Shown: one piece after another, positions 1,096-45,094 of the stretch | Numbering within the stretch: the first letter of the stretch is position 1 | Layout: the number at the start of each line of letters is the position of its first letter | NCBI RefSeq assembly: GCF_964204645.1 | Contig: NC_134033.1 | Location: forward strand, 8,440,655-8,504,654 | Source: Tubulanus polymorphus | Taxonomy: Eukaryota > Animalia > Nemertea | DNA: 64,000 nt | Direction of reading: 5' to 3' | Translations under genes and position numbers: made by a program | Notes under the pieces: model-generated | Databases searched by the model: none | What the model was told of the DNA's origin: nothing | What the model saw: only the letters and a program-made list of their open reading frames with translations

Positions 1096-1521
1096 AGTAA
1101 TAGGAAAAGTGGGCTTTCAGATATGGAGGTCGGAGGTCGAGCTCACTCAACCTCTCTCCCTCTAGAATGAAAGCCTCAATTCCTTATTACTCTTAATAAT
1201 TTCATATAAATGAACATTATTTACATGAATTTCATTTATTTTAAAATCATTTATATGTTAATTACAAAAGTAGTGTGAATAAAGTGTGAGAAATAATTCA
1301 TATTTTAACAGATTTCGAATAAAAATATAAGTAAAATAATTAGATTTTTAAACATAAAAGTGTGAGTAAAGTGTGAGTGAAATAACTCATATTTTAGAAA
1401 AGTGACAAGTTATTAACGAGTTGATTAAAATTAGATTTTTAAACATAAAAGTGTGAGTAAAGTGTGAGTGAAATAACTCATTTCATACCAGAGTACGAGA
1501 GTACGAGACACCTCTCATCAC
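1096..1521 (+). repeat. Left TIR of P1 (first ~96 bp self-complementary; internal AAAGTGTGAGT repeats)
   Basis: Reverse complement of 17456-17899. Confidence 0.93.
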
Positions 1522-1797
1522 AGCGAGGCGCTAGTGAGAACGGTCGATTGCTCTGTGATACACATATACAGTGAGTGCGCGTAACAACAGCTGCGCGTGG
1601 ATAGATCGATACATCGAGGTGCTACCGAGAACGGTTATTAACGCATGTACTATTACTGTAGTACAGTGATTGCGTGTCAGCTGTGCTCGGATAAATAGAT
1701 GCTGTGAGGCTTGGATGACAACGGTTAATAGCGCGCTTGTTATATATAAGGGGAAGTAATCCCCACTCATCACCACAAGTAATTTTTTTCCTTATAA

Positions 1798-4700
1798 ATG
1801 GGGGAGAATAAGACAGGATAAATTGATGTTAATGAAAATCAATATTATTGTACATATTGTAAAAAATACATTGATAAATCTCAAAAATCGCGTCATGAAA
1901 AATCTACAAATCATCTGAAAAATGTAATAGATTTTGAAACTCCAGAAAATTCCAATGAAAGAAAAGAACGATTAGATGATATGAAAAAAGATGAAATTAG
2001 ATGTATTGTTTGTAATGAATTTATAGTAAAAAGGAATTATAAAAGACATCTCGAATCACAAAAACACTATCAAAATTTAAATAAAAATGTTTTAGGATCA
2101 GAACATTTTGATGATAAACCTCAACAAGTAAAAAAATCAACTTCAAAAACTAAATCCATTTTAAATAAACCTTACATGGAAAATGTTAGAAATTATATCG
2201 ATTCACTAGAAATAAAAGATACAATTGAAATATTAGGAACATTACGTAGTAAAATTGGTCCTGCAGCTATTATATTTAGATTTTTTAAAGGTACAAAAAT
2301 AGAAGATTATAGTAAATTTATTGAATTCATGGAAAAATACTAGATTTGATAACAGATGTTGAATATCCAAAAATTAGTATTTCTGGGAAAGTAAGTTTTT
2401 TAAAGTCAGAAGATAAAATGGATTATGATATTCAAACACTCTCTGAAGAAAAAATTTTAAAACGCAAATAAAAGAGAAGTTAGAAAAAATATTTAATGAA
2501 TTTAAACGACATATTGAAGAAAGATATTTTGAGGGTTCTGGTTTAACATTGAATGAAATTATATTTTTAGATTTAAATGTTTATAATACAAAAATGATTA
2601 AAACATCAAAAAGTAAAACAATGTTTAAAAATAACTCAAACTTTACAACAGAAAAGGATATTAAAGCATCATCTTATATTAAAATACCATTTACAACAAA
2701 AGCAGTAATAAATATTCAAAATGAAGATAATAAATGTTTTCTATGGTCAATTATTAGTCGCTAACACCCAACTCAGGAAAATGTTTGTAGTACAACAAAT
2801 TACCAGAAATATGAAACAAGATATAAAATTGATCAATATCCAGTAACTATAAAAATGATTCCTAAAATAGAAAAAGATTATGATTTAAAAATAAATCGAA
2901 TTAATGCAATTACCAAAGACAAAAGGTGAAAATATTAAAGATTATATATTAGAAGCTTTATATTTAACAGAATATTATGATGATGAAAAAGTTATAGTTA
3001 CAAAAAAGTTATATTACCAAAAAGATGAAAATGAACATTATATGTGGTTAAAACAAATTGATTTATTCTTTAGAACAGAAAGTGATCATCATCATAAAAT
3101 TTATCTATGTAGGAAATGTTTATCTAAATTTATGACTGAGAATACATTATTAAAACATAAAGAATTATGTGATAATAAAGATTTTTGCAAATTAATAATG
3201 CCAACAGAAAAAGATTGTAAGTTGAAATTTACTAATCATAAATTTAAAAACATTGTTCCATTTGTAATTTATGGGGATTTTGAATCGTTGAATAAAGAAT
3301 TAACTAATCAAGATAGAAAAGAAATATATAATAAAAAGCAAATTTAAAAATCAATGGATAAAGGAAATGAATTAAATGAAGATATAATTCAAGATCCACC
3401 AATAATAAACACAAATGAAAAAGTTCATCAAAGAGCTGCTGCTTATGGAATTTACATAAAATCAAATTATCCTGAATTATATCAAAGTCAATATATTCCT
3501 TTTAGAGGTGAAGATGTAGTTAATAATTTTTGTAACAAAATAATTGAATTAGAAAGTGATTTTGCAAAATCATTAAACAAAAACAAAAGAATAGTTATGA
3601 CAAAAGAAGATGAAATTGATTTTAATTATGCAACTCATTGTTGTTATTGTGAAAAACGTTTTTATTCATTTGATAAAAAAGTTAGAGATCATGATCATTT
3701 AAATTCGAAATATCGTGGAGATGCTCATGAAGATTGTAATTTACAAGCTAAGAAAGCTAATTTCGTACAAATATTATTTCATAATTTATCGGGCTATGAT
3801 ACCCATCTATTTATAAAAACAATTATCAGGAAAATTGGGTGCAATTAATCAAGAAATAGAAGAATATAATGCTATGAATGGTACAAATGTAAGAAAATAT
3901 GATTTTAAACTATTAGCTAGACATCCGAAAATTATATTTCATTTCAATTTGGTTGCATTAGATTTTTAGATTCTTATAGATTTCTAGCAAGTTCATTAGA
4001 TAATTTAGCAAAAAGTTTAGTTGATATTGATTTTGTAATAACTCGACATTATTACCCAAATGACAAGATTTTAAATTATTGAGATATAAAGGAGCAATTC
4101 CTTATTCATTTTATAAAACACATGATGATTTTAATGTAACAGAATTATTAAAAGAACAATTTTATGATCAATTAAAAGAGGAGTATGTGAAAGATGAAGT
4201 GTTTAATAGAACATTAAATATTTGGAATCACTTTAAGATAAAAAATCATGTTGAATTAGTAGATTTATATTTAAAATCAGATGTTATGATATTGGCTGAT
4301 ATATTTGAAAAATTTAGAGAAGTTAATTCGAATCATTTTAATGTTGATCCTTGTTATTGTTATTCAAGTCCTGGTTTAACCTGGCAATGTGGTTTAAAAT
4401 ATACAAATGTAGAATTCGATTTATTAAAAGAACCAGACATGGTTTTATTATTTGAAAAATCAATTAGAGGTGGAATTAGTGGTGTTATGGGAGATAGACA
4501 TTTTAAAGCAAATGATGAATATAAATTATTATATATTGACGCCAATAATTTATATGGTTGGGCAATGATGCAACCTCAACCATACAAAAATCTTATATTA
4601 ACAGAAGTTGAAAGTGATGATAAAACTGATTGGGAAAGCGCAATTATTAGTTTAAAAGATGAAGCACCAATTGGTTATTTCTTTGTAGTTGATTTAGAAT

Positions 4701-7040
4701 ATCCTGATAACATAAAATTTAAAACAAGAAACTTACCATATTGCCCAGAACATTTAGCCGTAGATGATAGTTATTTAAGTGAATACCAGAAGAAAATAAA
4801 ACCGAAAGATCATGTTTTTACAGAAAAATTAATACTTACTCAAAACAATAAATACAATTATATTGTTTATTATAGAATGCTAAAATTTTATCTAAAACAA
4901 GGAATGAAAGTAAAGAAAGTACATAGATATATTGAATTTAATCAATCGAAGTGGTTAGAAAAATATATACAACAGAGAACCATATCAAAAACAGATTTTG
5001 AAAAAGATTTCTTCAAATTAATGAACAATAGTTTTTATGGTAAAACATGTGAAAATATTAGAAATAGAAATGAAATATTGTTAGTAAATAATTCTGAACG
5101 ATTGAGACATTTACAATCAAGTCCTAGACATTTAGGAAATAAAAGATTTGAAGATTATTTAACCGCAGTTAAATTAAAAAGAACGTCAATGAAATTTAAT
5201 AAACCTATATTCATTGGTTCAACTATTTTAGAAGTATCAAAATTATTAATGTATGATTTTTATTTTAATGTTTTACAACCACTTTTTGGGGAAAAGTATT
5301 GAAATATTATATTTTGATTCTGTATCAGCTGACACCCCAATATTATTAAAATGTAAAAATAAAATATTAATTAGAAGAATTTCAGAAATAATTCCAAAAC
5401 AAAATGAATGTTATATTTCGTATGGTGAAAAATTAATACAAATAAATGAATTAATGGATGTTCGGACAAGAAATGGATGGAAAAAATTAAAGAATATAAT
5501 CAGGCATAAAACAAATAAGAAAATCTATAGAGTTAGAACTAAATTAGCGTTTGTAGATGTTACAGAAGATCATAGTTTAATTAAACGAAATGGTGATGAA
5601 ACGAAACCAACTGATATAAAAATTGGAGATGAATTATTACATAAAAGATTTTTCCAAAGAATGAATCATATGTCATTTGATGAAATAATTGATAATATTT
5701 ATAATATAGAACCCGAAACATTAGAAGAAAAAGAATATTTTATCAAAGGATTTTTTATGGGAGATGGTTCAGCAGGTGTGTATAATTATGCTAGTGGAAC
5801 TCAATATTGTTGGTATTTATGTAATCAAGACTTGAAATTATTAGAAAGAATTAAGAAATTCTGTGAAGAAGTTTACTCATATAAAACATTTAGAATCGTG
5901 GATCATATGAAATCATCGGCAGTTTATAGAATACTCGTTAATAACCCTGAAGATTTTGCAATTAAATATAATGATGAATTCTATATTCATGCAATAGTGA
6001 AAAGTAATACTTCAACCAAAGAAATGATAGTTCCAGATTATGTATTAAATGCAAAATATAATTTAAGAAAATGATTCTTCATTGGATTCTATGCTGCAGA
6101 TGGTTCAAAAAGTTTCAAAAACCACAAAACAATATCTTTAGCTCAAAAATGAAAAGTTGCTATATCAGGATTGAATATATTATGCAATTCATTAGGTTTT
6201 AATTTTGAATATTGGATTGATTAAATTTAAACCAAATTGCTTTAATTTAAACCATGTAGAAAATGAGTTAACTGAAGAAGTTAAAGATTATTGGAAATAT
6301 ATAACCCGTCAGAATATGTTTATGATTTATCAACTGAAGATGGTACATTTAACTGTGGATTTCCATTAATAGCCAAAAATACGGACGCCTACATACTAAA
6401 AATCAAGACAAATGACATAACAAAAGACTTAAAAACATTAAAACATCATTTTGATTTTAGCAATTATCCCAAAGATCATGAACTATTTAGTAATGATAAT
6501 AAAAAGATTCCTGCTAAGTTTAAAGATGAATTAGGGGGTGATGAAATGATTGAATTTGTTGGGATAAGAAGTAAAATGTACAGTTATAGAACAAAAGATC
6601 ATGAAGCTAAAAAGTTAAAAGGAATAACAAAACATGTGGTTGATAAACATATAGAATTTCAAGATTATATCAAGTGTTTATACAACTCATTTGTTATGAA
6701 ACATAAAGTGAATTGTTTAAGATCAGAAGATCACGAGATGTACATAAATGAAGTTGAAAAAACTAGTTTGAATCCATTTGATGATAGAAGGCATATTTCA
6801 GATGATGGTATAAAAACATTACCTTATGGTTATCAAAATGGATCAATATCATCAAACTCGAAATCACTACTTGTTTCTTCTTTTTCATTTAATTGTTTTT
6901 GTATAATTTGTTTAGGTTCTCTTATCTTGTACCTCATTTCATCTCGCTCTCTTTGTTTCTTTTTGTTCGTTAATTCATCAAATGAATTTATAATATCAAT
7001 GTTTAAAAAATTAACAATCTTATTTAAAAAGAATTTATAA
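1798..7040 (+). pseudogene. polB: Protein-primed family B DNA polymerase of P1 (N-terminal Zn fingers, putative vOTU, EndoVII-like insert, exonuclease, polymerase), intein-containing; stops and frameshifts
   Basis: Fragments with VIYGDFES, FHNLSGYD, YLKSD, YIDANNLYGWAM, KLMNNSFYGK and YFD/TDA; collinear with P2 PolB; the true C-terminus probably lies near 6830. Confidence 0.93.
5319..6380 (+). mobile_element. Intein with LAGLIDADG homing endonuclease in PolB motif C (degenerate)
   Basis: YFD|SVSADTPILL (block A), VDVTEDHSL (block B TxxH), FIKGFFMGDGS and FFIGFYAADGS (two LAGLIDADG motifs), YVYDLSTEDGTF (block F), LIAKN|TDAY; 1062 bp, net in frame; absent from P2 (YFDTDSY). Confidence 0.93.
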
Positions 7041-8128
7041 TTAATTGAATCTGTTATTCTATTATCCACATAATATTTTAATATTTGTTTGAATGTTTCT
7101 TTTATATTTTCCATATCTTCTTCTGTTAATTTAGGTTTTTTATAATAATCGTTAAATAATAAATATAAATACATTTTCTTTTCTTGTGTGTTAAATGTTG
7201 ATGGAATAATTGTTTTTATTATATCTTTTTTTAGTCATTTCACCATTTTCATTTTCTATTATTTTCATTTTTTCAAGCCATTGCTTATATTCTGGTGTAT
7301 GATCTTCCATAGAAAATATATCAAATATTTCATCTATATATTTTAATTTTTGTTCTATAAGAATATCTCTAGTTTCTTCATCACCCCATAAATTCTTTTA
7401 CCATCCACATTCATTACAAAATATCACAGGACCTTCTTGTCTTAAGTACTCATAAATACATTGTGGGCATTTCTTTCTATCATAGCTTGGTAATAGATCT
7501 TCATTAAGCTCTTGGTATTTCCTTACGTTTTCTTTATGTTTTATTGTTCTATTATGTAGATTTAAATTACTTGTTGTAATAATAAATTTACAATATTTAC
7601 AATAATATTTTTTTCTTACTAATTCATTATATTGTTTATCTAACTTTTTAAGTGTTTCTTTATTATCTGGTAACGTTTTCCATATTTTATTTTTTCTAAT
7701 ATATTATTTTTTCTTTCATTGAATTCTGTTTCAAATTTATAAGAAATTTTATCTATATGTACTTTACGAAATTGATGATTCTCCCAATCTTCTATATTTT
7801 CAGGGCTATATTTTATTCGACAATGCTCACAGAAATGATCTTTTATATTATTCTTATCATAGAATAAGAAAGGTCTTTTCCAAATAACTTCAGGTTCACA
7901 TTCAACAGAATTACTATTACTTTCGTTACAATCAACATTAACCGTTGTGTCATTAATTTTACACTTCTCTGAATGTTTTTTAACATAATTTCTTGAGAAT
8001 AATTTATTACAATTTGGGCAGTTTATTTTAGGGGGTTTATAATTTTCATCATGTTTTTTCATATGTCGAGCCATATTACTTTTTCTTAGAAGTTCACCAC
8101 ACATTTCACATGGTATCTTCGCATCCAT
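6833..8128 (-). pseudogene. P1 accessory multi-zinc-finger protein (probably one frameshifted gene)
   Basis: CEMC..HMKKH, CPNC..HSEKC, CEHC..H..H and YCKYCK..H..H motifs; ORFs 7640-8128 and 6833-7174 appear joinable through frameshifts. Confidence 0.6.
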
Positions 8129-8196
8129 TTATTTAGGAAAAATTTTATTAAAATTAATTTTTAGTGATGGGCGGTAATTTTTTATGTTATAAATGA

Positions 8197-8983
8197 ATGG
8201 TAGAATTAAAAGAATACAGAATATTTGTTGATTCTAGAAGACATTCAAATTATAAATCACATAATTTATTAGTACAATTAGATAGAGAATTTAAGAATTG
8301 TGTTGATTTAAAATTAGTAAATATAAGTTTATTTAACTCATTTTACAATATATCGAATAAAACTATTGAACACAGAGCCTTTTTAATTTTTGATAAAGGT
8401 AAAAATGAATGGTCCTATATATATTATATATATTATATTATATTATTTTTATATATATATTAAATCAGGGTTATATAATTAGATACATTAGCACAAGAAA
8501 TTAATAGAAAAGCCTGGCACAAGTTAGGTAGTAATTCCGGGTTTAGTATTAGATTTTTAAAAAGTGATAGTTCTGATAGAATAAAGATAAGGTTGTCTCA
8601 TATTTAAAAACATAAATTTATGGTAAAGAAACCTATAGCTAAACTGTAAGGAATTCCTCCAGATAGATCTTTTACAAATATTGATGCTGCTACACCAAAC
8701 TTAATACCTTACACGCATTTTTATATTTTAATCGATCCTACAAAACCATTTGAAGCAACTAAAGATATAACTTGTAATTCTGGTTTATTAAACATTTTAC
8801 CATTGAAGAATGTTAAAGAATTTGGATTGCAAATAAATTATAATTAAACAGAATGTGATTTGAAACCATGCATTCCTCGTTTTAATAATTTTAGATTAGA
8901 AATTAGAAATCATAATGGATATTCAAATTGATTTGAATATCTTTCCTGTGATATATGAATTAGTTATAAGATGTAGAGAGTAA
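8197..8983 (+). pseudogene. Putative minor capsid (penton-like) protein of P1
   Basis: N-terminal IFVDSR, SFYNI and PGLYN motifs, ~250 codons, beta-rich; ortholog at 39281-40040. Confidence 0.6.
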
Positions 8984-8999
8984 TTTTTTTGATATATAA

Positions 9000-9302
9000 A
9001 TGAATATAACAGTAGGGCCGAGTATACGTTTTGGGTTTGATTTTAAACATGGTTAAGAAATGAGAATTAAACTAAATGATGTAATTACTGATATTAAACG
9101 TAAATCATTTAACAATGCATCAATGATTAATAAAGAAAATAATATTGATTTAATTAAAACACCTTTAGAGTATAATGAATTAAATGAAGATGGAATAATT
9201 GATGATATTAAAAACATATTAACTAAAATATATGATAATCATAAAAGTAGAAATGAAATAAATGTTGAAATAATCATCACTAAGATAACTAAATATTTTT
9301 AA
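9000..9302 (+). pseudogene. Conserved small P1/P2 hypothetical protein (premature stop)
   Basis: MNITVGPS...; ortholog at 38979-39263. Confidence 0.7.
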
Positions 9303-9326
9303 GATAGTAATTTTTTTGATTAATAA

Positions 9327-9548
9327 ATGAGTGATAATAAGTGGATAATAACTGGATTATATAATGGAGCATTACTATCAGTTGGAACTGTTGGTTATTC
9401 AATGGTATTAAAAAAAGTATTAAAAATGGGAAGTGTTAATGTTGATAGATTTTATATAAATGATATTTTAAAATTAACATTAGCAGTTACTTTATCTAAT
9501 TTAACTATTGATTATTTGGAAAAACAAATATATATCCCTCCCATATAA
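9327..9548 (+). CDS. Small hydrophobic Polinton protein (73 aa)
   Basis: Near-identical ortholog at 38703-38924. Confidence 0.75.
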   Translation: MSDNKWIITGLYNGALLSVGTVGYSMVLKKVLKMGSVNVDRFYINDILKLTLAVTLSNLTIDYLEKQIYIPPI

Positions 9549-9576
9549 GAAGTGTATAATTTTTTTTGTTAAATAA

Positions 9577-9999
9577 ATGGCTTCTGCAATTATAACTATT
9601 ATAGGATCGGCAGTTGTTAACGCTTTAGCATTTACAGGTGGTGGTTATTTATTTAAGCATATTGATAAAAATGGTTCATTATCAGAACAAAAAAGACATA
9701 ACTTAGCATTAGAGAAATATAATTAAGCTGCAGAAGAATATAGAGAAAAAAGACAAAACTATATGGATTACATCAATAAAGAATTATATGATCAGAAGAT
9801 TTCACATAGAGATTTTCAATCAGTCGATGATGCAATGAGTTTATATAACGCGGTAACCAATAAAGAAAAATTACATCTATACAAACCTAAATTATCAGAT
9901 TATTATACCCCAAGTAAAGAACAACAGAAATATGAAATAATTTGGATTTTAGGTGGAACTGTTATTATTATATTTGTAGCATATAAATTTACTAATTAG
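9577..9999 (+). pseudogene. Small Polinton protein with hydrophobic N-terminus and C-terminal TM helix (one stop)
   Basis: MASAIITIIGSAVVNALAFTGGGYLF...EQKRHNLALEKY; ortholog at 38261-38678. Confidence 0.75.
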
Positions 10000-10019
10000 T
10001 AATTATTTTTGCTAAATAA

Positions 10020-10454
10020 ATGGATGATAAATTTGATAATATTGATATTATTCCTCATGATATAAATAAAACTAATTTAAAAATATATTTAGAAAAACAA
10101 ATATTAGAATTTGAAAGTGACTTAAAGATAAAAAAGAAAGAATATTTAAAAAGTAAAATTATATATTATTTTATTATCAGTGGTTCAGTTACAATTAGTT
10201 CTGTAATAACATTTCTAGCAATATTCAGTCCATTAACACCTTTAGCTATATCAATTGGTGTGTTAGGATTATCATCAAGTGTTTTAACTGGTATAAGTTC
10301 AAAATTAAATATAAAAAGTAATAAAGATAAAATTACAACTAATATAAAAGAAATTAATAAATTGAAAAATACACTAGATTATATAATAAGTTTAAATGGT
10401 CATATTAGAGTTGAAGAACAAGATAAATTATTAAAAGAATTAATAGATTATTAA
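10020..10454 (+). CDS. Polinton membrane-associated protein (two hydrophobic helices between coiled coils)
   Basis: Intact 144 aa; ortholog at 37806-38240. Confidence 0.75.
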   Translation: MDDKFDNIDIIPHDINKTNLKIYLEKQILEFESDLKIKKKEYLKSKIIYYFIISGSVTISSVITFLAIFSPLTPLAISIGVLGLSSSVLTGISSKLNIKSNKDKITTNIKEINKLKNTLDYIISLNGHIRVEEQDKLLKELIDY

Positions 10455-10470
10455 TTTTTTTATTATATAA

Positions 10471-12545: not shown

Positions 12546-12561
12546 TTTTTTTATTATATAA

Positions 12562-16490: not shown

Positions 16491-16522
16491 GCAACAACAC
16501 AACTAATTTGTTTGTTATGTAA

Positions 16523-30657: not shown

Positions 30658-30663
30658 AATAAG

Positions 30664-32383: not shown

Positions 32384-32389
32384 CTATTT

Positions 32390-32700
32390 GTATACCTATG
32401 TATCTAATACGTATTTAATACGTATCAAATACGTATTAAATACATTAATACTTAAAACCCCCTTTTTTAAAATAAATATTATTCATATAATTTTCAACCA
32501 ATTTATTTTTATTTTTTTCAACAAATATATGAATAAGTTTGAAAATAATAAAGGTTATTTATTATTACTGAGGTTTCAATATAAATTTAAAAAAGAAATA
32601 TGATTTAAGGTATTTTCAAATGATACGTATTAGATACGTATTAGATATGTATTAAATACGTATTAGATACCTTAATACTTAAAACCCCCTTTTTTATTTA
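32390..32700. repeat. Two blocks of 11-bp ATACGTAT-core repeats, each followed by TTAATACTTAAAACCCCCTTTTTT
   Basis: Visible at ~32400-32468 and ~32622-32695. Confidence 0.8.
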
Positions 32701-32729
32701 CTATTATTTTATACAATTTTCAACCTTTA

Positions 32730-33617: not shown

Positions 33618-33649
33618 TTACATAATAAATTTTTATTAAAGTTAAAATT

Positions 33650-34896
33650 TTAATACATAACACTATCTAATTGTGAATTTACAATATTTAATTGTGCGTC
33701 AGATATAATATAAATGTGCATTTCAAAATTTTTGATTCCTTTATTCTTTGTCATGAATAATTGTATTCCATCTTTAGTGTTCTGTAATTTTTTTCCAGAA
33801 CCATGTAATGAATTATCCTCTGTTGTTCTAAAATCTAACCATAATGCATATTTATTACCGGTATAATAATCAATTTGATTAATGTTACAATTTTCAGATG
33901 ATTTTACTTTTTCATTCATAAAATGTTTTCTAATTTCTGGCCATTGATCAATCATTCTCATTCCTTGACAAAATATTTTATTTGCTATTCCTTCGATAGT
34001 TATTTCTACTTTTGTTATTTCAGGATTATAATAATTATCAACATTTATTGCGCCATTAGTATATGTTGCAATGGTAAAAAATATTAATATACCTTTAATA
34101 GATCTTCTTGGGAAGTTAATATTCTCATTAATAATTTCATCATTTGCATTAATAGTTACAGTTTTAAATTTATCAATATAATCATATAATAATGAAAATC
34201 CTTGATTGTATTTAGTTTGAATTATACTTGAAATATTTTCATCAGTTACTGTGTCATATTCTAAACATATATTCGATAATTTATAACTCATTTCTTTATT
34301 AACGCTAGATATTACAATTTCATTTACAGGAGCAAATGTTATTTCGAATATAACGTCTTCTTGAATTGCGTATTTATATAAAGGTGCATTGTTATTTATC
34401 AATTCAAAGTCTAATGGAATTTTATATTTGCTTCCATATATACTTTTTATCAATTTATCTACAGCATTAGTTAATATTGCGCTATTAGCTTCTGATCTTA
34501 ATTTATTTTGGTTTTCTGATTGGATGCCTTGAAATATCATATTATTTCTATTTTCTTTAGTTAACCATAAATCTTTATAATGCATAAATAAATTATAATC
34601 ATCTAATGAGAAAACTGTTTCTGGACCAATCTTTATTGTTAACTTTTTAATCAAATATCTCCCAACATTATCAACAACATAATTATTATTATTACCGATT
34701 ACTTTTATATCGGCTGATAAATAAATACTATTTGGAACATAAAAAGTATTTGTGTTAATCGAGGAATTCTAACATATAAAGTTTCATCAGGATTAATATT
34801 AGAAGGGTTATGAGTAATTATATGATGTGATCTTTCTGCTTTAATAGCATTAGATATTCTATGATTCTTAGAAGGATTGATATAACTCCCACTCAT
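33650..34896 (-). pseudogene. Major capsid protein (double jelly-roll type) of P2; one frameshift near 34740
   Basis: ~415 codons; THNPSNINPDETLYVRIP, YNPEITKVEITIEG and YALWLDFRT..LHGSG resemble invertebrate Polinton MCPs. Confidence 0.8.
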
Positions 34897-34916
34897 TTAT
34901 TTAACAAAAAAATTAA

Positions 34917-36381
34917 TTATTTATTTTTTATCATGTTTACTAAACCAAAAATAATAGCACTTACAACTGTAATTAAAAATAAAATAATATGTTCAGCAGC
35001 AAAGTTAATAATGTTTCCTGCAGATTTCAATATAAAACCAACAATTGATGCAATAATTCCTGGCAATGCTGCAGCAGATTTCTTTGATAGTTCCCATAAA
35101 TATTTTGCTAATTTCTTTAAACCATCTTTAACTTTATCTTGTATAGAATTATTATCTGGAGGTTTATCTGGTTTCTGGAGGTTTATCTGGTTTATTGGGA
35201 GTAGGAGTAGATTTCAAAGCATTTGATATAGCTAAACCAATTGTTGTAAATAACATAGTTACAGCTGTTAGAATTGAACGAATTGTTATTCCTTCAAACT
35301 TAAATAATAATTTTATTCTATCTTTTAGTGATATGTCAGAATTTGGTTTTAGTATTAACTCTTTAACAACAACTTTTAATCTATTAATACAATAATCATA
35401 TGATTTTAATAATAATTTCATTTTTTCTTTCTGAAATTCTATGTTATATTCTAAATCATCAATTTCTTTTTCTAAATATGCATTTCTTTTTTTAAATTCA
35501 ATTTCTTCAATAACTTTAAATTCTCTATCTAATTTTAATTGTTCTAATTCTTTTCTGGTGTCAAATAATTTATTTTCTAAAGGTTTAATTTTATTATATC
35601 TAATATGTTTTTCGCGCGCAATTTTATCAGCTTCATTTCGTATACTTATCATTTCTCTAATTGTTTTTTTAGAAAACATACTTAAAGCTTCTATTTCTTG
35701 ATCTGTTGCATCAAGTAATCCATTCGGTAAAAGTTTTTCAGTTTGAACTTCGTTTGAGTTAAGTTTACTAGTTTTGGAAGTTTTATTCTGTTCAGAAGTT
35801 GTTTCCGGTTCTAAATTATTATCGATTGTTTCAAATAAGTCATTAATTCTTTGTTTAAATACTCTTTTATTTTGATTTATTTCTTCTTGTGTTACATCTT
35901 CAATTTTATTACTATTTATTATTCTCTTAATTCTAGATAGTAATGAGTCAGACTTAAGCAAAGTTGATTTTGCTATTATTTTGTCTTGATTTTTATAAGA
36001 GATGTTAATATAATAATCATCTTTCAATTTATAATAATATTCACCATCTAAAAACTTTAATTCTTGTACTAAAAGTCTGGCGCCTTTATCATTTATATTA
36101 TATCCAGAATCTTTAAATACATGTTGAAAATCATACATAAATTCAATATTTTCTAAATTTTGTCTTGATAAACCTTGATTTTCATTTTCAGGATTTATTC
36201 TCGATCTAGTCCTTCTATCAAATTCATCTGTTGATGGGGCTTTAGAACCACTATCTGCTAAATTAGAATTATATGCTGATTCATCATCATTATCAATATA
36301 AGTTTCATTAAAATCAGGTTGTGGTTCATCACTTATACCAGGGGCGTCACCAAAAGTAACCAATGGAATTTCTTCATCCAT
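34917..36381 (-). pseudogene. Large coiled-coil/membrane protein (frameshift near 35165)
   Basis: Ortholog of 12562-13987. Confidence 0.7.
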
Positions 36382-36397
36382 TTATATAATAAAAAAA

Positions 36398-37789
36398 TTA
36401 AAATTTAAAATATAATATTCAATATATAATATACAAGTTATAGCTAATTTTGCATTTTCATGGGATTTATTATCATCATTTAGTTTAATTATATCATGTT
36501 AATATTATCAGTTTTAAAATTTTCTGATGTATTGTAATCTTTTATTTTAGAATCATTATTTAATTTAATATTATTAGTTTTAGTTTCTGTTGATTGAATG
36601 TGTTTTTTATTTTTTTAACCTTCCATTAATTTTGGAGCAGTGATAATCTTTTTATTTATATCATTCAATCCAAATGAATTATTTATTGTTGCAGTTTTAA
36701 TTAGATTATTATAACCAATTATATTTCCCATCTTTAATACTAAATCATTAGAAATAATAAATAGATTAGGGCCTATACAATAATTTAATCTAATATGTGA
36801 TTTATCTAAATAATTTTGATATCTTACAATGTTTTCCGGAATCGATCTATTTTTATCATTATGAATAGAATCTTCAAATAATACTTTGAATTGTTTCTGT
36901 GTATCAAATGATGTATTTAAATTTCCAATTATTGGGGATCTTGTTTCAACTTGCGCACCTAAAATACATATCGAATAAGTTCTAATAGATTGATTTATTC
37001 TTTGTATTCCAGCTTTAGTAAAACCTTCACTATTTTCTAAAATAAAATTAACCCAACCATCATTATTTTGTTGTTGTTTGATATAAATATAATATTTTGG
37101 TATTTCATTCCATTCAAACGTTTTTGAGTTTGTATTTTTTATTTCTTTTCTATATTTTTAGTATAAGGCACAGCAAAACCTCCGATTGGAAATGATGAAT
37201 TATTCATTGCATCCAAAGCTTTCTCTACTTTAGATAAATCTCCCCCTGTAATTGTTCCCATCTTTGATCTAAAATCAGAATTATTTATATCTATATTAAA
37301 TTCATTACATATTTTATAATACTATAATAAATTAATGTTATTATCTAATTCTTTAAAATATCTAGACCCTGGTAAAGGACACTCTAATTCATTTAATATT
37401 AATCTTATTTGAAAGTATGTATGAAATCTAAAGAGTGATAATATTAATGGTAAACTTGGTTTATTTAAATGATCATTCCAACTTATTCCGCATCCTGTTG
37501 TTGCGCAATAAACAGCAAAATTTAATTGGTTTTGCCAGAATTGCATATTTGATTTTAACATCCATAATTTTGCTTTACTTAATTCTTTTTCAAAATTAAT
37601 TTCATAAACATTGAATATATTTTCCATCTTTACATGAAAACTATTACTTTCAGTAACATAAATATATAAATCAATTAATGAATTTAAAACTTCATTTCTA
37701 TATGTAATATCTTTATTAAAATATATTGCTGGAATATTATATTTAATTGATTTATTATATTGGAAAGCTTTTGGAAAACTATCTGCCAT
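36398..37789 (-). pseudogene. Conserved WQNQLNFAVYCATTGCG protein
   Basis: Ortholog of 10471-12545. Confidence 0.75.
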
Positions 37790-37805
37790 TTATATAACTA
37801 AAAAA

Positions 37806-38240
37806 TTAATAATTAACTAATTCTTTTAATAATTTATCTTGTTCTTCAACTGTTATATGGCCATTTAAACTTATTATATAATCTAGTGTATTCTTTAATT
37901 TATTAATTTCTTTTATATTAGTTTTAATTTTTTCTTTATTACTTTTTATATTTAATTTTGAACTTATACCAGTTAATACACTTGAACTTAATCCTAATAC
38001 ACCAATTGATATAGCTAAAGGTGTTAATGGGCTGAATATTGCTAAAAATGTTATTACAGAACTAATTGTAACCGAACCACTTATAATCAAATAATATATA
38101 ATTTTAGATTTTAAATATTTTTTCTTTTTAACTTTTAAGTCACTTTCAAATTCTAATATTTGTTTTTCTAAATATGTTTTTAATTTAGTTTTACTGATAT
38201 CATGAGGAATAATATCAATATTATCAACTTTATCATCCAT
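37806..38240 (-). CDS. Polinton membrane-associated protein
   Basis: Ortholog of 10020-10454. Confidence 0.75.
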   Translation of the reverse strand: MDDKVDNIDIIPHDISKTKLKTYLEKQILEFESDLKVKKKKYLKSKIIYYLIISGSVTISSVITFLAIFSPLTPLAISIGVLGLSSSVLTGISSKLNIKSNKEKIKTNIKEINKLKNTLDYIISLNGHITVEEQDKLLKELVNY

Positions 38241-38260
38241 TTATTTAGTAAAAAAAATTA

Positions 38261-38678
38261 CTAATTAGTAAACTTATAAGCAACAAATATAACAATAACA
38301 GTTCCGCCTAAAATCCATATTATTTCATATTTCTTCTGTTCATTACTTTGGGTATAATAATCTGATAATTTAGGTTTGTATAGATTTTTCTTTATTGGTT
38401 ACCGCGTTATATGAACTCATTGCATCATCAACTGATTGAAAATCTCTATGTGAAATCTTCTGATCATATAATTCCTTGTTAATATAATCCATATAGTTTT
38501 GCCTCTTTTCTCTATATTCTTCTGCTGCTTTATTATATTTCTCTAATGCTAAGTTATGTCTTTTTTGTTCTGTTAATGAACCATTTTTATCAATATGCTT
38601 AAATAAATATCCGCCACCAGTAAATGCTAAAGCGTTAACAATTGCCGATCCTATAATAGTTACAGCAGCAGAAGCCAT
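38261..38678 (-). pseudogene. Small hydrophobic protein (frameshift)
   Basis: Ortholog of 9577-9999. Confidence 0.75.
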
Positions 38679-38702
38679 TTATTTAGTAAAATAATTACGC
38701 AT

Positions 38703-38924
38703 TTATATGGGAGGAATATATTTTTGTTTTTCCAAATAATCAATAGTTAAATTAGATAAAGTTACTGCTAATGTTAATTTTAAAATATCATTTATATCAA
38801 ATCTATCAACATTAACACTTCCCATTTTAAATACTTTTTTTAATGCCATTGAATAACCAACAGTTCCAACTGATAGTAATGCGCCATTATATAATCCAGT
38901 TATTATCCACTTATTATCACTCAT
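38703..38924 (-). CDS. Small hydrophobic protein
   Basis: Ortholog of 9327-9548. Confidence 0.75.
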   Translation of the reverse strand: MSDNKWIITGLYNGALLSVGTVGYSMALKKVFKMGSVNVDRFDINDILKLTLAVTLSNLTIDYLEKQKYIPPI

Positions 38925-38978
38925 TTATTTATCAAAAAAATTACTATCATCAAAATATTTAGTTAACTCATTTATGAA

Positions 38979-39263
38979 TTATTCAACATTTTTTTCATTA
39001 CTAGTTTCATTTGTATATATTTCAATTATTATTTTTTTAATATCATCAATAATTCCATCTTCATTTAATTCATAATATTCTAAAGGTGATTTGATTAAAT
39101 CAATTACTTTTTCTATATTATAATTTTCTTTATTAATCATTGATGCATTGTTAAATGATTTACTTTTTATATCAGTAATTACATCATTTAGTTTAATTCT
39201 CATTTCTTTACCATGTTTAAAATCAAACCCAAAACATATACTCGGTCCAACAGTTATATTCAT
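38979..39263 (-). CDS. Small hypothetical protein
   Basis: Ortholog of 9000-9302. Confidence 0.7.
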   Translation of the reverse strand: MNITVGPSICFGFDFKHGKEMRIKLNDVITDIKSKSFNNASMINKENYNIEKVIDLIKSPLEYYELNEDGIIDDIKKIIIEIYTNETSNEKNVE

Positions 39264-39280
39264 TTATATAGTGAAAAAAA

Positions 39281-40040
39281 TTACTCTCTACATCTTATAA
39301 CTAATTCATAAATTACAGGGAAATTATTTAAATCAATTAAGTATCCATTGTGATTTCTAATTTCTAATCTAAAATTATTAAAACGAGGAATGCATGGTTT
39401 GAAATCACATTCTGTTAAATTATAATTTATTTGCGTTCCAAATTCTTTAACATTCTTCAATGGTAAAATGTTTAGTAAACCAGAATTACAAGTTATATCT
39501 TTAGTTGCTTCGAATGTTTTTGTAGGATCGATTAAATTGCAATAGATATAAAAGTGTGTAAAAGGTATTAAGTTTGGTGTAGCATCAATATTTGTAAAAG
39601 ATTTATCTGGAGGAATTCCTAACAGTTTAGCTATAGGTTTTTTTTACCATAAATGCATGTATTTCACTATTAGACAACCTTATCTTTATTTTGTCAGTAC
39701 TCTCACTTTTTAAAAATCTAATATTTAACCCGGAATTATTACCTGACTTGTGCCAGGCTTTTCTATTAATTTCTTGTGCCAATGTATCTAAATTATATAA
39801 CCCCGGTTTTAAATATATATAGGCCCATTCATTTTTATTTTTATTAAAAATTAAAAAAGCTCTATGTTCAATAGTTTTATCCGATATATTATAAAAAGAA
39901 TTACATAAACTTATATTAACTAATTTTAAATCGACACAATTCTTAAATTCTCTATCTAATTGTACTAGTAAATTATGTGATTTATAATCTGTAAGTCTTC
40001 TAGAATCAACAAATATTCTGTATTCTTTTAATTCCACCAT
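39281..40040 (-). pseudogene. Putative minor capsid protein of P2 (frameshift in an A-run)
   Basis: Ortholog of 8197-8983. Confidence 0.6.
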
Positions 40041-40093
40041 TTATTTTACATATTTTCTTATTCGAAATCTATTTCATGGTGCCCCTTTTCATT

Positions 40094-40411
40094 CTAACCT
40101 TTGTATACGAAATAGAAATCTCCAGAACATAATTCTTCTAAGTCTTCACTTGATAAACTATGAAATCTATCCGGTAAATATGTTCTGAATTTATACGTAT
40201 TTCCTTTTAATCCTTCATATTCTAAGTGTATAACTAATTCATCTCCATAATTATTAGTAACTGTATCCATATTTGTAATTAGATATTTCTTATGGATTGT
40301 TAATTCCGTTAACTTTTTGAATTTATAATCTACAGATTTTACATTTGTTATATCTTTAATTCTCTCTAGAAATAATTTGTTGTTCTCACTGTGTGTTTGT
40401 TTACTCTCCAT
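40094..40411 (-). CDS. Small hypothetical protein, possibly an OB-fold ssDNA-binding protein
   Basis: KLTEL...Y.I....VTNNYG..LVIHL...TYLPDRF pattern; immediately downstream of polB; fold is a guess. Confidence 0.4.
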   Translation of the reverse strand: MESKQTHSENNKLFLERIKDITNVKSVDYKFKKLTELTIHKKYLITNMDTVTNNYGDELVIHLEYEGLKGNTYKFRTYLPDRFHSLSSEDLEELCSGDFYFVYKG

Positions 40412-40440
40412 TTATTATACATATTTTTATTAAAATTTGA

Positions 40441-43400
40441 TTAACACGTTAGAATTCTTTTCATTATCTCTTTCTCTTTTGTTTCTTCTCTTTTAAATTT
40501 TAAGTATTCATCTAAATTGCAACCATATGCAACTGTATGAATTCCATTATCTAAAATATTTCTTTTATCATCAAATGGGTTTAGACTTATCTTTTCAATT
40601 TCTTCAATAAACATTTCATGATCTTCAGATCTTAAACATCTCATCTTATGTTTTCTAACTTCTTCATTGAATATACAATTGATGTAATCTTTGAAATGAA
40701 TATTCTCTTCTACTACACTTTTGGTTATTCCTTTTAACTTTTTAGCTTCATGTTCTTTAGTTTTATATGAATACATTTTAGATCTAATACCTATGAACTC
40801 TATCATTTCTTCACCACCTAATTCATCTTTGAATTTACCGGGAACTTTTTTATTATTATTGCTAAACAATTCATGATCTTTAGGATAGTTACTGAAATCA
40901 AAATGATGTTTTAATGTTTTTAAATCAGCAGTTATGTTATCAGTTTTTATCTTTAATATGTAACTGTCAGTATCAAAATATAATATTTCTATATGTTTTT
41001 CTCCAAAAAGTGGTTGTAATATATTATAATAGAATTCATACATTAGTAATTTTGATAATTCTAAAACTGAAGCGCCAACATAGATTGGTTTATTAAATTT
41101 CATTGATGTTCTTCTCATCTTAACTGCAGCTAAATTTTCATCAAATATTCTGTTACCTAAAAACTTAGGATATGATTGTAAATGTCTAATTCTTTTACCA
41201 TTACTAACTAACTCAATATCATTTTTATTTCTAATATTTTCACAAGTCTTACCATAGAATGCATTATTTATTAACTTGAAGAAATCTTTTTCGAAATCAG
41301 TTTTAGCTTCAGTTCTCTGTTTGGTGTTAAAATCTATATATTTTTCTAACCACTTAGATTGACTAAATGAAATATATCTATGTACTTTTTTTAGAACCAT
41401 TCCTTGATTCAAATAAAACTTTAACATTCTATAATGTACTACATAATTATATTTATCTTCTTGAGTTACCATTAACTTTTCTGTATGAATATGATTTTCG
41501 GGTTTAATTCTTTTTTGGTAATTTGATAATTCTTCATGAGTTACGGTTTTATGTTCGTGGCAGTAAGCTAGATTTCTAGATTTAAATTTTTTATCTTCAG
41601 GATATTCTAAATCTACAACAAAGAAGTAACCAGTATCTGAATCATCTGCAATATCTAGGATTATTTTCTTCCAATCAAATTTATCATTATTTTCATTTTG
41701 TAAAACTTCAGTTAATTCAAATACTCCATAAGGTTGTGGTTCCATCATTGCCCAACCATACAAATTATTTGCATCTATATATAATAACTTATATCCGGGG
41801 TTATCATTTACATTGAAATATCTATCCCCTAATACACCTGAAACTCCTCCTCTTATAGATTTTTCAAATAATAATAATTGATCTATATCTGTTAACAAAT
41901 CCATTTTTATATCTGTAAATTTTAATCCACAATCCCATGTTAATCCTGGTGATGAATAACAATGACAAGGATCAATATTGAAATATTTTAGGTTTACATC
42001 TCTAAACCTTTCGAATATATCCGATAATAATAATACATCTGATTTTAAATATAAATCTACTAATTGCCCATGATTTTCTATTTTGAAATGATTCCAAATA
42101 TTCAATGTTCTATTATATGCTTCATCTTTAACATATTCATTTTTTAATTCATCATAGAATTGTTCTTTCAATAATTCGGTTATGTTAAAATCATTATGTG
42201 ATTTATAAAATGAATATGGAATTGCGCCTTTATATCTCATTAATTGAAAATCATCATTATTTGGGTAGTGTTGTTTTGATATCTTTAATTCATCATCAAC
42301 TAATGATTTTGATAAGTTATCTAATGAACTATTTAAAAATCTATATGAATCTATAAATCTTAGGCAACCAAACTGGAATGATATATAATTCTCAGATGTT
42401 TTAGCTAACATTCTAAATTTATAAGTTGGTATTTTATCTTTTGATCTATTTGAATTTAATCTTTCTATTTCATTATTAATTTCTTCTATTTTATGGCATA
42501 ACTGTTTGATGAATAAATGTGCATCATATCCAGATAGATTATGAAATAAACCTGGTACAAAGTTAATTTTCTTAGCTTGTAAGTTACAATTCTCATGTGC
42601 AGCGCCTCTAAACTTTCCATTCAAATGATCATGGTCTCTTACTTTTTTATCTTTATAATTAAATATCTTTACACAATAATAACATTTATCTGCAAACTCA
42701 AATTCTTCTTTATCTTCTTCTGTCATTATAATTTCTATATTTGTATATATTCAATAATTTACTAAATCTTATTTCATATTCAATTAATAAGTCACAAAAA
42801 TGATTGATAACATTTTCATTTCTATAATGATAATATTCACTTTCAATTAGTTCTGGATAATCCGATTTTATATATAACCCGAAACCTGCAGCTGATTGAT
42901 GAATCTTTTTAATAGTATTTGTTTTTGGTGGTTCTTCAGAATAATCATTTTCATTAGAATTTAATTTCTTTCTCTTATAATATATTTCTTTTCTATCTTG
43001 ATCAGTTAATTCTTTATTTAATGATTCAAAATCTCCATATATAACAAATGATACTTTATTTTTGTAATCATATTTTTTGAATTCTAATATTTTATCTTTT
43101 TCATTTGATAAAACTAATTTACAATAATCATGATTTTCACATAATTGTTTATGATTTAATAATGTACTTTCATTACTGAATCTATGTAAACATTTTCTAC
43201 AAAGATATATTTTATGGTGATCATTTTCTGATTTAAAAAATAAATCGATTTGTTTAATCCACATATAATGATTCTCATAATATAATATATCTATAACATC
43301 ATTTGAATCATAATCTTTTGATAGATATAAAGGTTATAATGTATAATGTTTTATGTTGTTACCTTTTGTATTTGGTAATTTGATTAAATCAAATACATTT

Positions 43401-44478
43401 ATTCTTAAATTATTATCTCTTTCTATTTTTGGGATGTTTTTAATTATAACAGGATACTTATCTATCTTATAATTATTTTCAAATTGTTTATAATTTGTTA
43501 ATCTATAAGTATGTTTATTATAATCTTCAACTGGATGTAAACAACTTATTATAGCCCATAGAAAACATTTATCATCTTCATTTTGTACATTTATAACAGC
43601 ATTAGTTTTAAATGGTAGTTTAATATAACTTCAATATCTGGTTCTTTATAATATGATACATTATTTTCATCAATTGGTTTCGATTTAGTTAACTTATTAT
43701 ATTTTGTGTTATAAACATGTAAAGTTATAAATATTATCTCATCAAATATTAAACCAGACCCTTCAAAATATTTCTCTTCTATTTTAGTTTTTACTTCATT
43801 ATAACATTTATCTAATTTATCATCTATATGTTGTTTTGAAATAATATGTTGTGAATGAGAATTTATATTATATATTGGTTTATCTTCAGATTTTATAAAC
43901 TTTACTTTAACTGATATACTAATTTTAGGATATTCAACATCTGTAATTATTTTTATTATTTCTTTCATATTTTCTAAATGTTTTTTATTTTCTTCTAATA
44001 TTTTACCTTTATGAAATTTAAACTCGATAGCTGCTGGACCAATATCACTTTTAAATGCTTCGGTTATCTCTATATCTTTTTTATTATTCAATGAATCAAT
44101 TTATTTTCTTACATCTTCCATGTATTGTCTTTTATTGGTTAATTTATTTTTTATGCTTTTAATTGTCTTCTGTTTCTTATCATTATCTTTATCAAAATAA
44201 TCTTCACCTAAAATATCATTATTCTTATTTCTAATATGGCTTTTAGATTTTAAATAGTCATTATAATATCTTTTATCACTGAATGATTGATTACATGTAT
44301 CACATTTGTATGTTTCTTTTTCATTCTTTAATTCATCTAATTTAGTTTCTAATATATCATCTTTATATTCTAGTTTCAATTTATTCTCTAAATGTGTTTT
44401 AGTTTTATTGTGTCTTGATTTTTGGGATTTATCTATATTGATATTACATGTTGGACAGTAGTACTTATTTGCTTCCAT
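40441..44478 (-). pseudogene. polB: Protein-primed PolB of P2, intein-free
   Basis: YGDFES, FHNLSGYD, YIDANNLYGWAM, KLINNAFYGK, YFDTDSY; one stop and a few frameshifts. Confidence 0.94.
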
Positions 44479-44536
44479 TTTAATACTAAAATTTTTATTA
44501 AAATTGATTTTAGAAGTTCAATGATTTATATCATGT

Positions 44537-45094
44537 ATTATTTCAATCACACTTTACTAACACTTTTAATGTTTAAAAATCTAACTCACACAAATATGAA
44601 TATTGAAATAATGTTGTAAATATATACTTTTATATTGAATAATCTGTCAATTTAAATGTTATTCATGTATATGATTATTTTAAGAGTAATAGGGGTAATG
44701 GGCTTTCAGGTTAAAGGTTGAATGGTCGAGTACATTAAAAACAAATATTAAAAGTAATTTAAAACTATAATATATTTTCATAACCGTGTGTATTTCAGTT
44801 GAATAATAGAATAATTATTATTATTAAAATATATTTGATTATATGAATTTGTGTATTGTAAATAAATCAATTGGTCGCGGAGCGGAGCTGTAGCGAAGTG
44901 GAGCGACCAATTGATTTAATACAATATGCTTTTTAAATTTAAATTATTGATATCGTAGAATAAATATTTAGTTATAATATAAAATACACACGGTTATGAA
45001 AATATATTATAGTTTTAAATTACTTTTAATGTTTTGTTTTTTAATGAGCTCGACCCTTCGACCTTTGGCCTGAAAGCCCATTACCCCTATTACT
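44537..45094 (-). repeat. Right TIR of P2 (palindrome 44685-45094)
   Basis: Reverse complement of the left TIR. Confidence 0.93.

Follow-up and report, generated by a model that had tools for sequence, protein, structure and literature searches.

Damaged Polintons of the nemertean Tubulanus polymorphus with gene starts resembling poxvirus late promoters

Genes and termini of the two copies

The window analyzed here, a stretch of 64,000 nucleotides from Tubulanus polymorphus (assembly GCF_964204645.1, contig NC_134033.1, positions 8,440,655 to 8,504,654), contains two elements, referred to as copies A and B, each with a GC content of 24%, as compared with 45% in the DNA between them and 36% past B. 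Copy A occupies positions 1096..17899 and is flanked by a 6-bp target duplication (AACAGA at 1090-1095 and 17900-17905). Its TIRs (1096-1521 and 17456-17899; 426 and 444 nt) are 93% alike, and the 96-nt imperfect palindrome at the left end (1096..1191) is matched by one at 17804-17899. A protein-primed PolB gene interrupted by stops and frameshifts (1798..6830, plus strand) contains a broken intein (about 5319..6380, plus strand) and is followed by a broken minus-strand gene with zinc-finger, zinc-ribbon and VLTF3-like parts (6833..8128), which opens with TAAATG and is found in A only. The structural block (8193..13987, plus strand), comprising a minor capsid candidate, small membrane-type proteins and two larger conserved genes, consists mostly of broken genes and carries an 815-bp tandem duplication at 10598-12227. 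The remaining genes, all on the plus strand, are a broken major capsid gene (13988..14733) that ends at about residue 251 and abuts the integrase, an rve integrase with chromodomain lacking its N-terminal part (14736..15620), an A32-like packaging ATPase with one stop (15621..16247), and two small conserved genes with no function assigned (16523..17394), the second of which is broken.

Copy B occupies 26936..45094 between duplications of CACCTC (26930-26935 and 45095-45100), with TIRs of 567 nt that are 98% alike and terminal imperfect palindromes of 416 nt on the left (26936..27351) and 410 nt on the right (44685-45094). The plus strand carries a 127-bp tandem repeat (28238..28580) upstream of an open gene for an HNH / endonuclease VII-like homing-type nuclease of 229 aa that is absent from A (28707..29396), two small conserved genes with no function assigned (29688..30657), an rve integrase with chromodomain (PF00665 plus chromo; 30664..31779) containing two stops, and an open A32-like packaging ATPase gene (31772..32383; PF04665, E 5e-13). 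On the minus strand lie an accessory gene (32730..33617) that contains 24-bp repeats as well as a zinc finger and whose relatives occur in close kin only, the double-jelly-roll major capsid gene, with a single frameshift near its 5' end (33650..34896), and a structural block (34917..40040) made up of a coiled-coil/membrane gene, a conserved gene of 440 aa, SLATT-like genes, small membrane-type genes and a gene whose motif makes it a minor capsid candidate. Within this block intergenic gaps measure 3-54 nt, and every gene has a separate TAAATG. A 105-aa gene (40094..40411, minus strand), for which database searches found no function, adjoins the protein-primed PolB gene (40441..44478, minus strand; PF03175, E 5e-15), which has no intein, is broken in its N-terminal third and is open over its final 769 codons. 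The AlphaFold model of the B capsid (pLDDT 86) yielded Foldseek matches to iridovirus, PBCV-1 and mavirus capsids; PDB sequence searches with the capsid and three genes lacking assignment returned 0 matches, and Rfam and tRNA scans of the window returned nothing.

A multi-copy Polinton family

Copies A and B share 73-87% nucleotide identity, and their PolB pieces 69-75% amino-acid identity. Both possess the hallmarks of Polintons, namely a protein-primed PolB, an rve integrase, TIRs, 6-bp duplications, a double-jelly-roll capsid and an A32-like ATPase, and both are broken by stops, frameshifts and missing parts, as the preliminary description had stated. Reads point to about 100 or more chromosomal copies at many insertion sites. 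A and B are thus two damaged members of a Polinton family that exists in many copies. Empty-site joints were seen in 8 reads for A and in 13 for B (X6) and are not taken as polymorphism, since the flanks are partly repeats. The small runs X7, X8 and X9 yielded 1-4 records, which say nothing about expression, and X5, from another organism (share 0.05), showed scattered short matches and was left out of the analysis.

An adenain-like protease was found neither in the window nor in the metagenome relatives L004-L083 by tblastn with three candidates from L001-L003, a search that a divergent protease could escape. The window capsid gave no Pfam virophage match, while that of relative L001 does match PF21915. 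When IMG/VR was scanned with alignments of the capsid and of the VLTF3-like protein, and with the intein, no relatives were recovered.

Several features had been offered by the preliminary description as independent signs of replication alongside a large DNA virus, and most prove to be real without being informative. Relatives have full-length open frames, in keeping with an absence of introns, but those without TAAATG are equally intronless; likewise, the AT richness of A and B can be equaled by relatives that lack the motif. The hairpin-like termini are borne out as fold-back ends (z -21.5 for the 416/410 nt of B, z -4.6 for the 96 nt of A), but flip and flop forms are not seen among the four ends available, the two ends of each copy having the same form (95/96 positions in A and 407/416 in B, versus 67/98 and 331/427 when flipped). 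A Pol-c intein is present in A only, at YFD|TDS, a site that reads YFDTDS unbroken in B; it starts with Ser, ends with Lys-Asn before Thr, shows two LAGLIDADG-like motifs by eye, and matches TIGR01445 above cut-off and PF14890 below it (E 1e-5), but no giant-virus relative of it was found. Similarly, the HNH gene exists in B (phrog_1035, E 7e-15), but its viral relatives include phages besides giant viruses. Introns, base composition, intein, HNH gene and hairpins thus fail to discriminate, and nearly all of the weight falls upon the promoter.

A conserved signal at gene starts

In copy B, TAAATG is present at 14/16 gene starts versus 37/720 other ATGs (Fisher p 1e-15). In copy A it is present at 13/13 listed starts versus 42/665 other ATGs, in a list partly chosen by the motif and omitting the start of the truncated integrase, which is without TAAATG. 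The signal extends upstream: a T stands at -12 from the A of the ATG in 26/27 real TAAATG starts of A and B, as opposed to 29/79 other occurrences of TAAATG (p 2e-8), and at least six T residues within -16..-10 are found at 18/27 and 2/79, respectively. In vaccinia late promoters, TAAAT plus G overlaps the start codon, and a conserved T stands ten bases upstream (PMC11980589); the T of A and B lies 9 bases before the T of TAAATG and 10 before the first A, which reproduces the vaccinia spacing within one base. For a vaccinia intermediate promoter, PMC12917281 shows that it is the viral polymerase that reads the TAAA initiator, and the late initiator of ASFV is another motif, TATA (PMC7163114). 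Judged by its sequence, then, the layout of gene starts in A and B, a T-run followed by a short spacer and TAAATG, is of the poxvirus-late type, and a literature search found no report of such a promoter in Polintons. Splitting the promoters into an A-rich class for replication genes and a T-run class for structural genes suits B, but A and the relatives follow such a split only in part, and it was not adopted.

Among metagenome relatives, in which starts were set by homology and first ATG, the signal is all-or-none and restricted to some lineages. Specifically, of the 39 loci with at least two starts, 14 have TAAATG at two thirds or more and 25 at none. When grouped by capsid clade, TAAATG precedes 44/47 starts in the clade of B and 9/9 in a second, versus 0/81 in a third and 2/25 in a fourth. 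The contrast persists at matched GC (26-40%), with 33/35 versus 0/35 starts, and position -3 is T in 93% of 60 starts of the TAAATG group and A, Kozak-like, in 87% of 31 low-GC starts without the motif. The TAAATG starts claimed by the preliminary description are accordingly confirmed and in fact stronger than had been claimed, given the fixed upstream T, the T at -3, the restriction to clades and the independence from GC. Poly(A)-signal and splice-donor words showed no depletion in any group, and TTTTTNT was low in all groups (O/E 0.46, 0.66 and 0.51) and does not discriminate among them.

These counts bear directly on the proposal that TAAATG is a translation signal or by-product, arising from stop-start coupling, a trans-splice acceptor or AT bias. 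The TAA does serve as the upstream-frame stop at two starts of A (13988 and 15621), and at two more it terminates short frames that are not genes, but it is no stop at the other 23/27 starts, first and divergent genes carry TAAATG as well, no AG stands ahead of the ATG, and GC-matched relatives do without the motif. We therefore regard this proposal as largely refuted and retain for it only the slightest probability.

A relic would be a different matter: the motif could have been inherited from a virophage ancestor by a family whose present, or most recent, mobility is that of a conventional nuclear transposon. The broken state of both copies would be expected of a relic. However, the motif has been kept between A and B at their level of divergence and throughout a clade with capsid identities of 51-74% and a GC content of 20 to 44%, and it also opens patchily distributed accessory genes (HNH, kinase and VLTF3-like), all of which makes a relic highly improbable in our estimation.

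On a capsid tree built from metagenome relatives alone, TAAATG loci do not form one clade (3 changes; AU p 3e-5), and TAAATG also stands at 6/6 starts of L003, an element of another kind that encodes an adenain-like protease. Such polyphyly would suit a polymerase supplied in trans from a non-poxvirus source, be it a cytoplasmic element of linear-plasmid type that encodes an RNA polymerase or a different large virus whose initiator has converged. Yeast virus-like elements, which are AT-rich and compact and possess TIRs, use a TAAAN initiator with slippage (PMC6211774). Arguing to the contrary, the fusion of TAAAT to the start codon and the fixed upstream T correspond to the layout described for poxvirus late promoters, and by eye the profile showed no conserved upstream element like that of yeast. 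A non-poxvirus source thus appears improbable, though less so than a relic.

A VLTF3-like gene in copy A

The gene at 6833..8128 of copy A, which the preliminary description missed, likely encodes a VLTF3-like late transcription factor. Its Pfam PF04947 match is below cut-off (E 8e-5 to 3e-4), and the hhalign comparison is weak (E 0.003, probability 11%), while an Atlas search scored 0.93 with VLTF3 in 26/30 matches. It has intact relatives (P0122/P0123), the AlphaFold model of a relative reaching pLDDT 46, too low for fold comparison. The window gene was not recovered by a profile built from short VLTF3-like proteins, and a 133-aa piece of the gene had no match in Atlas. Read coverage of the gene is about 230-fold, which indicates that many members of the A subfamily carry it. 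The long form stands behind TAAATG in both A and the relative L006, so that mutual exclusion of VLTF3 and TAAATG is ruled out. Short VLTF3-like genes are carried by L017, L018, L024 and L064, where TAAATG is found at 0/18 starts. The occurrence of such genes in A and in these four loci suggests that Polintons can bring their own factor, and VLTF3 has been reported from some polintoviruses (PMC11131425) and from small polymerase-less viruses (PMC11253617).

It is conceivable, then, that the family can sustain itself within the nucleus, its VLTF3-like factor, provided by A-type copies and in trans for B-type copies, steering host RNA polymerase II to the T-run and TAAATG. The frequency of the long gene behind TAAATG, the precedents just cited and a copy number that fits a nuclear cycle all speak for such an arrangement. 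Against it stand the complete copy B, which is without the gene, the four loci that pair a VLTF3-like gene with 0/18 TAAATG starts, the TAAATG start of the factor's own gene, and the vaccinia initiator, which is read by the viral polymerase; moreover, transcripts initiated at the A residues would lack a 5' UTR, barring polymerase slippage. On balance, we consider nuclear self-sufficiency unlikely, although it is the strongest of the rival readings.

Proposed transcription by a helper polymerase

The reading that we favor, and deem more probable than not, is that the family is transcribed by a poxvirus-type polymerase supplied in trans, which would constitute a virophage life style. A co-infecting large DNA virus of poxvirus type would supply the RNA polymerase; transcription would begin within the TAAA, slippage would add a poly(A) leader, and a 5' UTR would be dispensable. 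Replication of the element would fall to its own PolB, packaging would take place in the helper's factory, and the integrase of the element would store it in chromosomes, as with mavirus; the VLTF3-like factor encoded by A would act on the helper's polymerase. This reading draws almost wholly upon the promoter signal. HNH genes, present in 5/26 TAAATG loci, and deoxynucleoside kinase genes, present in 2/26, as compared with 0/39 other loci, add slight weight, the queries having come from the TAAATG group. The dependence on a pox-like virus put forward in the preliminary description thus survives as the best reading by way of the promoter, but the other lines cited for it were uninformative and the overlooked VLTF3-like gene admits the RNA polymerase II rival.

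Neither copy, nor any of 92 accessory proteins that were scanned, yielded a recognizable subunit of RNA polymerase or a capping enzyme, several small genes of the two copies having no assignment. A promoter-pattern scan of IMG/VR for a helper returned 3 phage-like contigs only, whose own genes are without the pattern and which we attribute to chance. Given about 100 or more chromosomal copies, the helper reading requires frequent access to heritable cells, and it also calls for a route by which a cytoplasmic polymerase would reach an integrated copy. Core genes of coral polintons are expressed without a known helper in a study that does not cover promoter type (PMC11131425), and TAAAN initiators are also used by the polymerase of yeast linear plasmids (PMC6211774).

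In its broadest form, the proposal would be that a widespread integrating Polinton lineage consists of virophages of poxvirus-type viruses, stored in host chromosomes in hundreds of copies, and that TAAATG, by sequence alone, sorts helper-dependent from host-transcribed kinds, has been switched more than once and flags hosts with undiscovered poxvirus relatives; we judge this extension evenly poised between right and wrong. To our knowledge, the mode of expression of Polintons in animal-type genomes and the absence of seen particles are long-standing questions. A helper-specific promoter, if true, would explain silence without infection and extend the mavirus model beyond protists, and it would furnish a cheap sequence marker predicting both helper-needing elements and hosts that harbor undiscovered poxvirus-like viruses.

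Comparison with known systems

Copies A and B share with Maverick/Polinton elements (Polintoviricetes; possibly group 2 / protease-less types, 10.64898/2026.06.19.733378) a protein-primed PolB, rve, an A32 ATPase, a double-jelly-roll capsid, TIRs, 6-bp duplications and a length of 17-18 kb. They differ in that no adenain-like protease was detected, in the poxvirus-late-type signal that opens almost all genes, in the length of their fold-back ends and, for A, in an intein at the PolB catalytic motif. With mavirus and endogenous mavirus-like virophages, whose helper is CroV, they have in common an integrase, an element of protein-primed PolB type and the inferred use of a helper's late promoter motif, mavirus sharing the late motif of its helper (10.1101/068312). 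Unlike mavirus, they reside in a host that is no known protist system, carry a motif that matches the poxvirus class rather than one identified helper, and encode a capsid that by sequence falls outside the family of mavirus, its fold matches sharing 8-10% identity. As compared with Lavidaviridae / Virophaviricetes, no virophage-type capsid or protease was detected in either copy.

In yeast linear plasmids, one element relies on the polymerase of another. The plasmids pGKL1 and pGKL2 resemble A and B in their protein-primed PolB, TIRs, AT-rich compact genes and TAAAN initiator, but they have no capsid or integrase and require a separate upstream conserved sequence. The vaccinia late promoter is matched in sequence, and in spacing within one base, by gene starts that A and B, in contrast, employ at nearly all genes, including that of the polymerase. 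Finally, Polinton-like viruses found in entomopoxvirus occlusion bodies have been proposed to be poxvirus parasites in animals (Barth et al., PMC11296320), and A and B agree with them both in being of Polinton type and in the proposed parasitism. Those elements have an adenovirus-type protease, and two are without a detected integrase, whereas A and B are chromosomal and multi-copy; furthermore, the link to a poxvirus is provided in A and B by the promoter, a word that PMC11296320 never mentions.

Two damaged copies of one Polinton family

The window contains two AT-rich islands, each of which is a Polinton: A (1096-17899), bounded by the 6-bp duplication AACAGA, and B (26936-45094), bounded by the 6-bp duplication CACCTC. 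Both are 24% GC, as compared with 45% in the DNA between them and 36% in the DNA after, and both begin with AGTAATAG and end with CTATTACT. The terminal inverted repeats (TIRs) measure 426/444 nt in A (93% alike) and 567 nt in B (98% alike). Each copy encodes a protein-primed PolB, an rve integrase with a chromodomain and an A32-like ATPase, while the capsid candidate of B is a 372-residue open frame whose predicted fold (pLDDT 86) matches the double-jelly-roll capsids of iridovirus, PBCV-1 and mavirus; a search for an adenain-like protease found none. With DNA identities of 73% in PolB, 81-87% in the structural block and 78% in the integrase-ATPase region, A and B are, judged from their sequences, two subfamilies of one family.

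As the preliminary description held, both copies are damaged: stops and frameshifts break A and B, and A additionally carries a deletion and an 815-bp duplication. In A, at 14733-14736 of the window, a cut capsid gene abuts an integrase without its N-terminus, and the integrase of the metagenome relative L006 begins at the same residue (L006:7588). Decayed retroelement pieces (rve, reverse transcriptase) lie between and after the Polintons at 18378-26735, 46821-48059 and 62573-63115, and a tandem repeat (unit 155 bp, 3.7 copies) occupies 56924-57499. Flanks so rich in retroelements, together with what is published on elements of this class, suggest an animal-type host.

Abundance and rearrangement in sequencing reads

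Run X6 comes from another study under the same species label. Its raw reads cover most of B to a depth of 300-970-fold, as compared with 3.3-fold for a single 660-bp bin of flanking DNA that looks unique; reads running from B into unlike flanks (agreement 0.35) number 922 on the left and 655 on the right, and the intein and VLTF3-like gene of A are covered about 190-230-fold. These data suggest that insertions number about a hundred or more, a rough figure in that the baseline is a single bin and reads of A and B cross-map. In contigs of run X1, a high-depth joint bypasses B's entire PolB gene (40428-44501), suggesting a common polymerase-less derivative. Just inside the left TIR of B, a repeat and HNH module (27506-29391) is joined elsewhere in many reads, with joints that link 29281 to 44367 on the opposite strand and 29391 back to 27506, and looks like a mobile cassette.

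A TAAATG signal at gene starts

The TAAATG promoter motif reported earlier is upheld by counting: TAAATG occupies 14 of the 16 gene starts of B, the other two reading AAAATG and AAGATG, as compared with 37 of the 720 remaining ATGs (p 1e-15). In the main block of B, where intergenic gaps measure 3-54 nt, every gene has its own motif. For A, TAAATG is listed at 13 starts, a list in part chosen by the motif and omitting the truncated integrase. A T at -12 accompanies 26/27 real TAAATG starts vs 29/79 chance occurrences, and at least six T's fall within -16 to -10 at 18/27 vs 2/79. That TAAATG is instead a signal for translation is barely credible, given that its TAA forms the stop of the upstream gene at only 2 of the 27 starts.

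Distribution of the signal among relatives

Relatives comprised the best 80 of 102 metagenome loci from a capsid alignment plus three IMG/VR loci, with each start set at the first ATG of a homologue of nearly full length, the motif playing no part as a criterion. At least one start could be scored in 62 of these 83 loci, and TAA was found at 62 of the 194 starts. The signal is all-or-none: among 39 loci with at least two starts, 14 score at least two thirds and 25 score none. On a 44-row capsid tree, TAAATG marks 44/47 starts in the clade containing B and 9/9 in a second clade, as compared with 0/81 in an 18-row clade and 2/25 in a 7-row group, these loci being relatives of one another rather than independent events. 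The motif label changes three times on this tree, and a single clade of TAAATG loci is rejected (AU p 3e-5, for a group named after the first tree was seen). At 26-40% GC, the motif is present at 33/35 starts in 17 loci vs 0/35 in 19 loci (mean GC 34 vs 33%). In groups partly set by the motif itself, position -3 is A in 87% of the 31 starts of low-GC relatives lacking it, and T in 93% of 60 starts of the TAAATG group. TAAATG also stands at 6/6 gene starts of L003, a different element: a Polinton-like viral contig in which protease and integrase are fused. Clade restriction, the GC-matched contrast and L003 together identify the motif, at the level of sequence, as a lineage-specific, selected signal and not a product of composition; that it is a relic is very unlikely.

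Among other relatives, the IMG/VR contig L001 combines a Sputnik-type capsid with a PolB 39% identical to that of B, and L017, which lacks TAAATG, carries a Bcl-2 family gene (L017:2448-2858; PF00452, E 2e-18). Capsid relatives of 54% identity, which are listed under Bartonella as hypothetical proteins from short contigs (cluster P0020), are probably host-derived contamination.

Other features ascribed to a viral helper

The preliminary description made the family dependent on an unseen pox-like or other nucleocytovirus helper. The promoter lends this partial support, whereas the remaining arguments are shared by motif-less relatives or unspecific. Absence of introns and AT richness are both true of the family, but neither serves as an argument, since motif-less relatives are also intronless and AT-rich. 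The intein of A, located in YFD|TDS of PolB, is real (TIGR01445, above cut-off), and we take it to be Pol-c. Giant viruses carry Pol-c-type inteins. However, a search of IMG/VR found no relative, neither B nor any fetched locus contains the intein, and PDB yields weak matches only, to two inteins (E 0.007 and 0.009). Similarly, the EndoVII-like HNH gene of B, described as NCLDV-like, has 12 IMG/VR relatives (29-36% identity), of which four follow the start of a giant-virus capsid gene (Pfam confirms three) but three follow a T4-type capsid gene (one confirmed), the remainder being classed by look only. In L084-L087, relatives of this gene come immediately after the opening portion of giant-virus major capsid genes, the layout to be expected of intron-borne homing nucleases. 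Lastly, the supposedly hairpin-like ends of A and B do fold back strongly (arms 67-77% alike), but flip/flop forms, of the kind treated in PMC8956199, were not seen in either copy, both ends of each having the same form. Palindromes near contig or element ends occur in the motif-less L043 (1-206) and L027 (134-192); fold-back ends may thus extend beyond TAAATG elements and, if these palindromes are terminal, would not be tied to promoter type.

Which polymerase reads the signal

The family's genes are probably read by the poxvirus-type polymerase of a co-infecting virus. Such a polymerase would transcribe the element's genes, while replication would fall to the element's own PolB and storage to its integrase, and the element would package itself. 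All steps past the motif match we infer. No RNA polymerase subunit was found in A or B.

A broken VLTF3-like gene of A (6833-8128, minus strand), overlooked in the preliminary description, combines zinc fingers with a zinc ribbon and has a tail that matches Pox_VLTF3 below cut-off. It has two intact relatives among 1.84 billion representatives, for one of which VLTF3 clusters make up 26 of 30 Atlas hits (at 0.93), and an hhalign comparison with short VLTF3-like proteins of Polintons gives a weak match. L006 contains the start of this gene too, preceded by TAAATG. B has no copy of it, and four loci without the motif carry short VLTF3-like genes. VLTF3 in polintoviruses has already been published (PMC11131425, PMC8502044). 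The gene of A shows apparent traffic with large DNA viruses, and it cuts both ways: it may tune the helper's polymerase, or it could steer that of the host. Transcription by host polymerase II under a factor of the element's own is unlikely.

Comparison with known systems

In the literature searched, which has most subscription journals outside its coverage, nothing was found that describes promoters of poxvirus type in Polintons; an association of Polinton-like viruses with entomopoxviruses is made by Barth et al., with no promoter analysis in the main text (PMC11296320). For the favored reading by a helper's polymerase, mavirus with CroV (10.1101/068312) offers precedent for own replication, packaging and integrase storage. 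According to a review, vaccinia late promoters have TAAAT plus a G over the start codon and a conserved T ten bases upstream, amid further T's (PMC11980589); in A and B the upstream T precedes the motif T by 9 bases and the first A by 10. At an intermediate promoter, a cryo-EM study shows that the viral polymerase itself reads the TAAA initiator (PMC12917281). The late initiator of ASFV is TATA (PMC7163114), in contrast to TAAATG in A and B, whereas yeast linear plasmids use TAAAN (PMC6211774), a likeness that favors some other trans-acting polymerase, itself quite unlikely.
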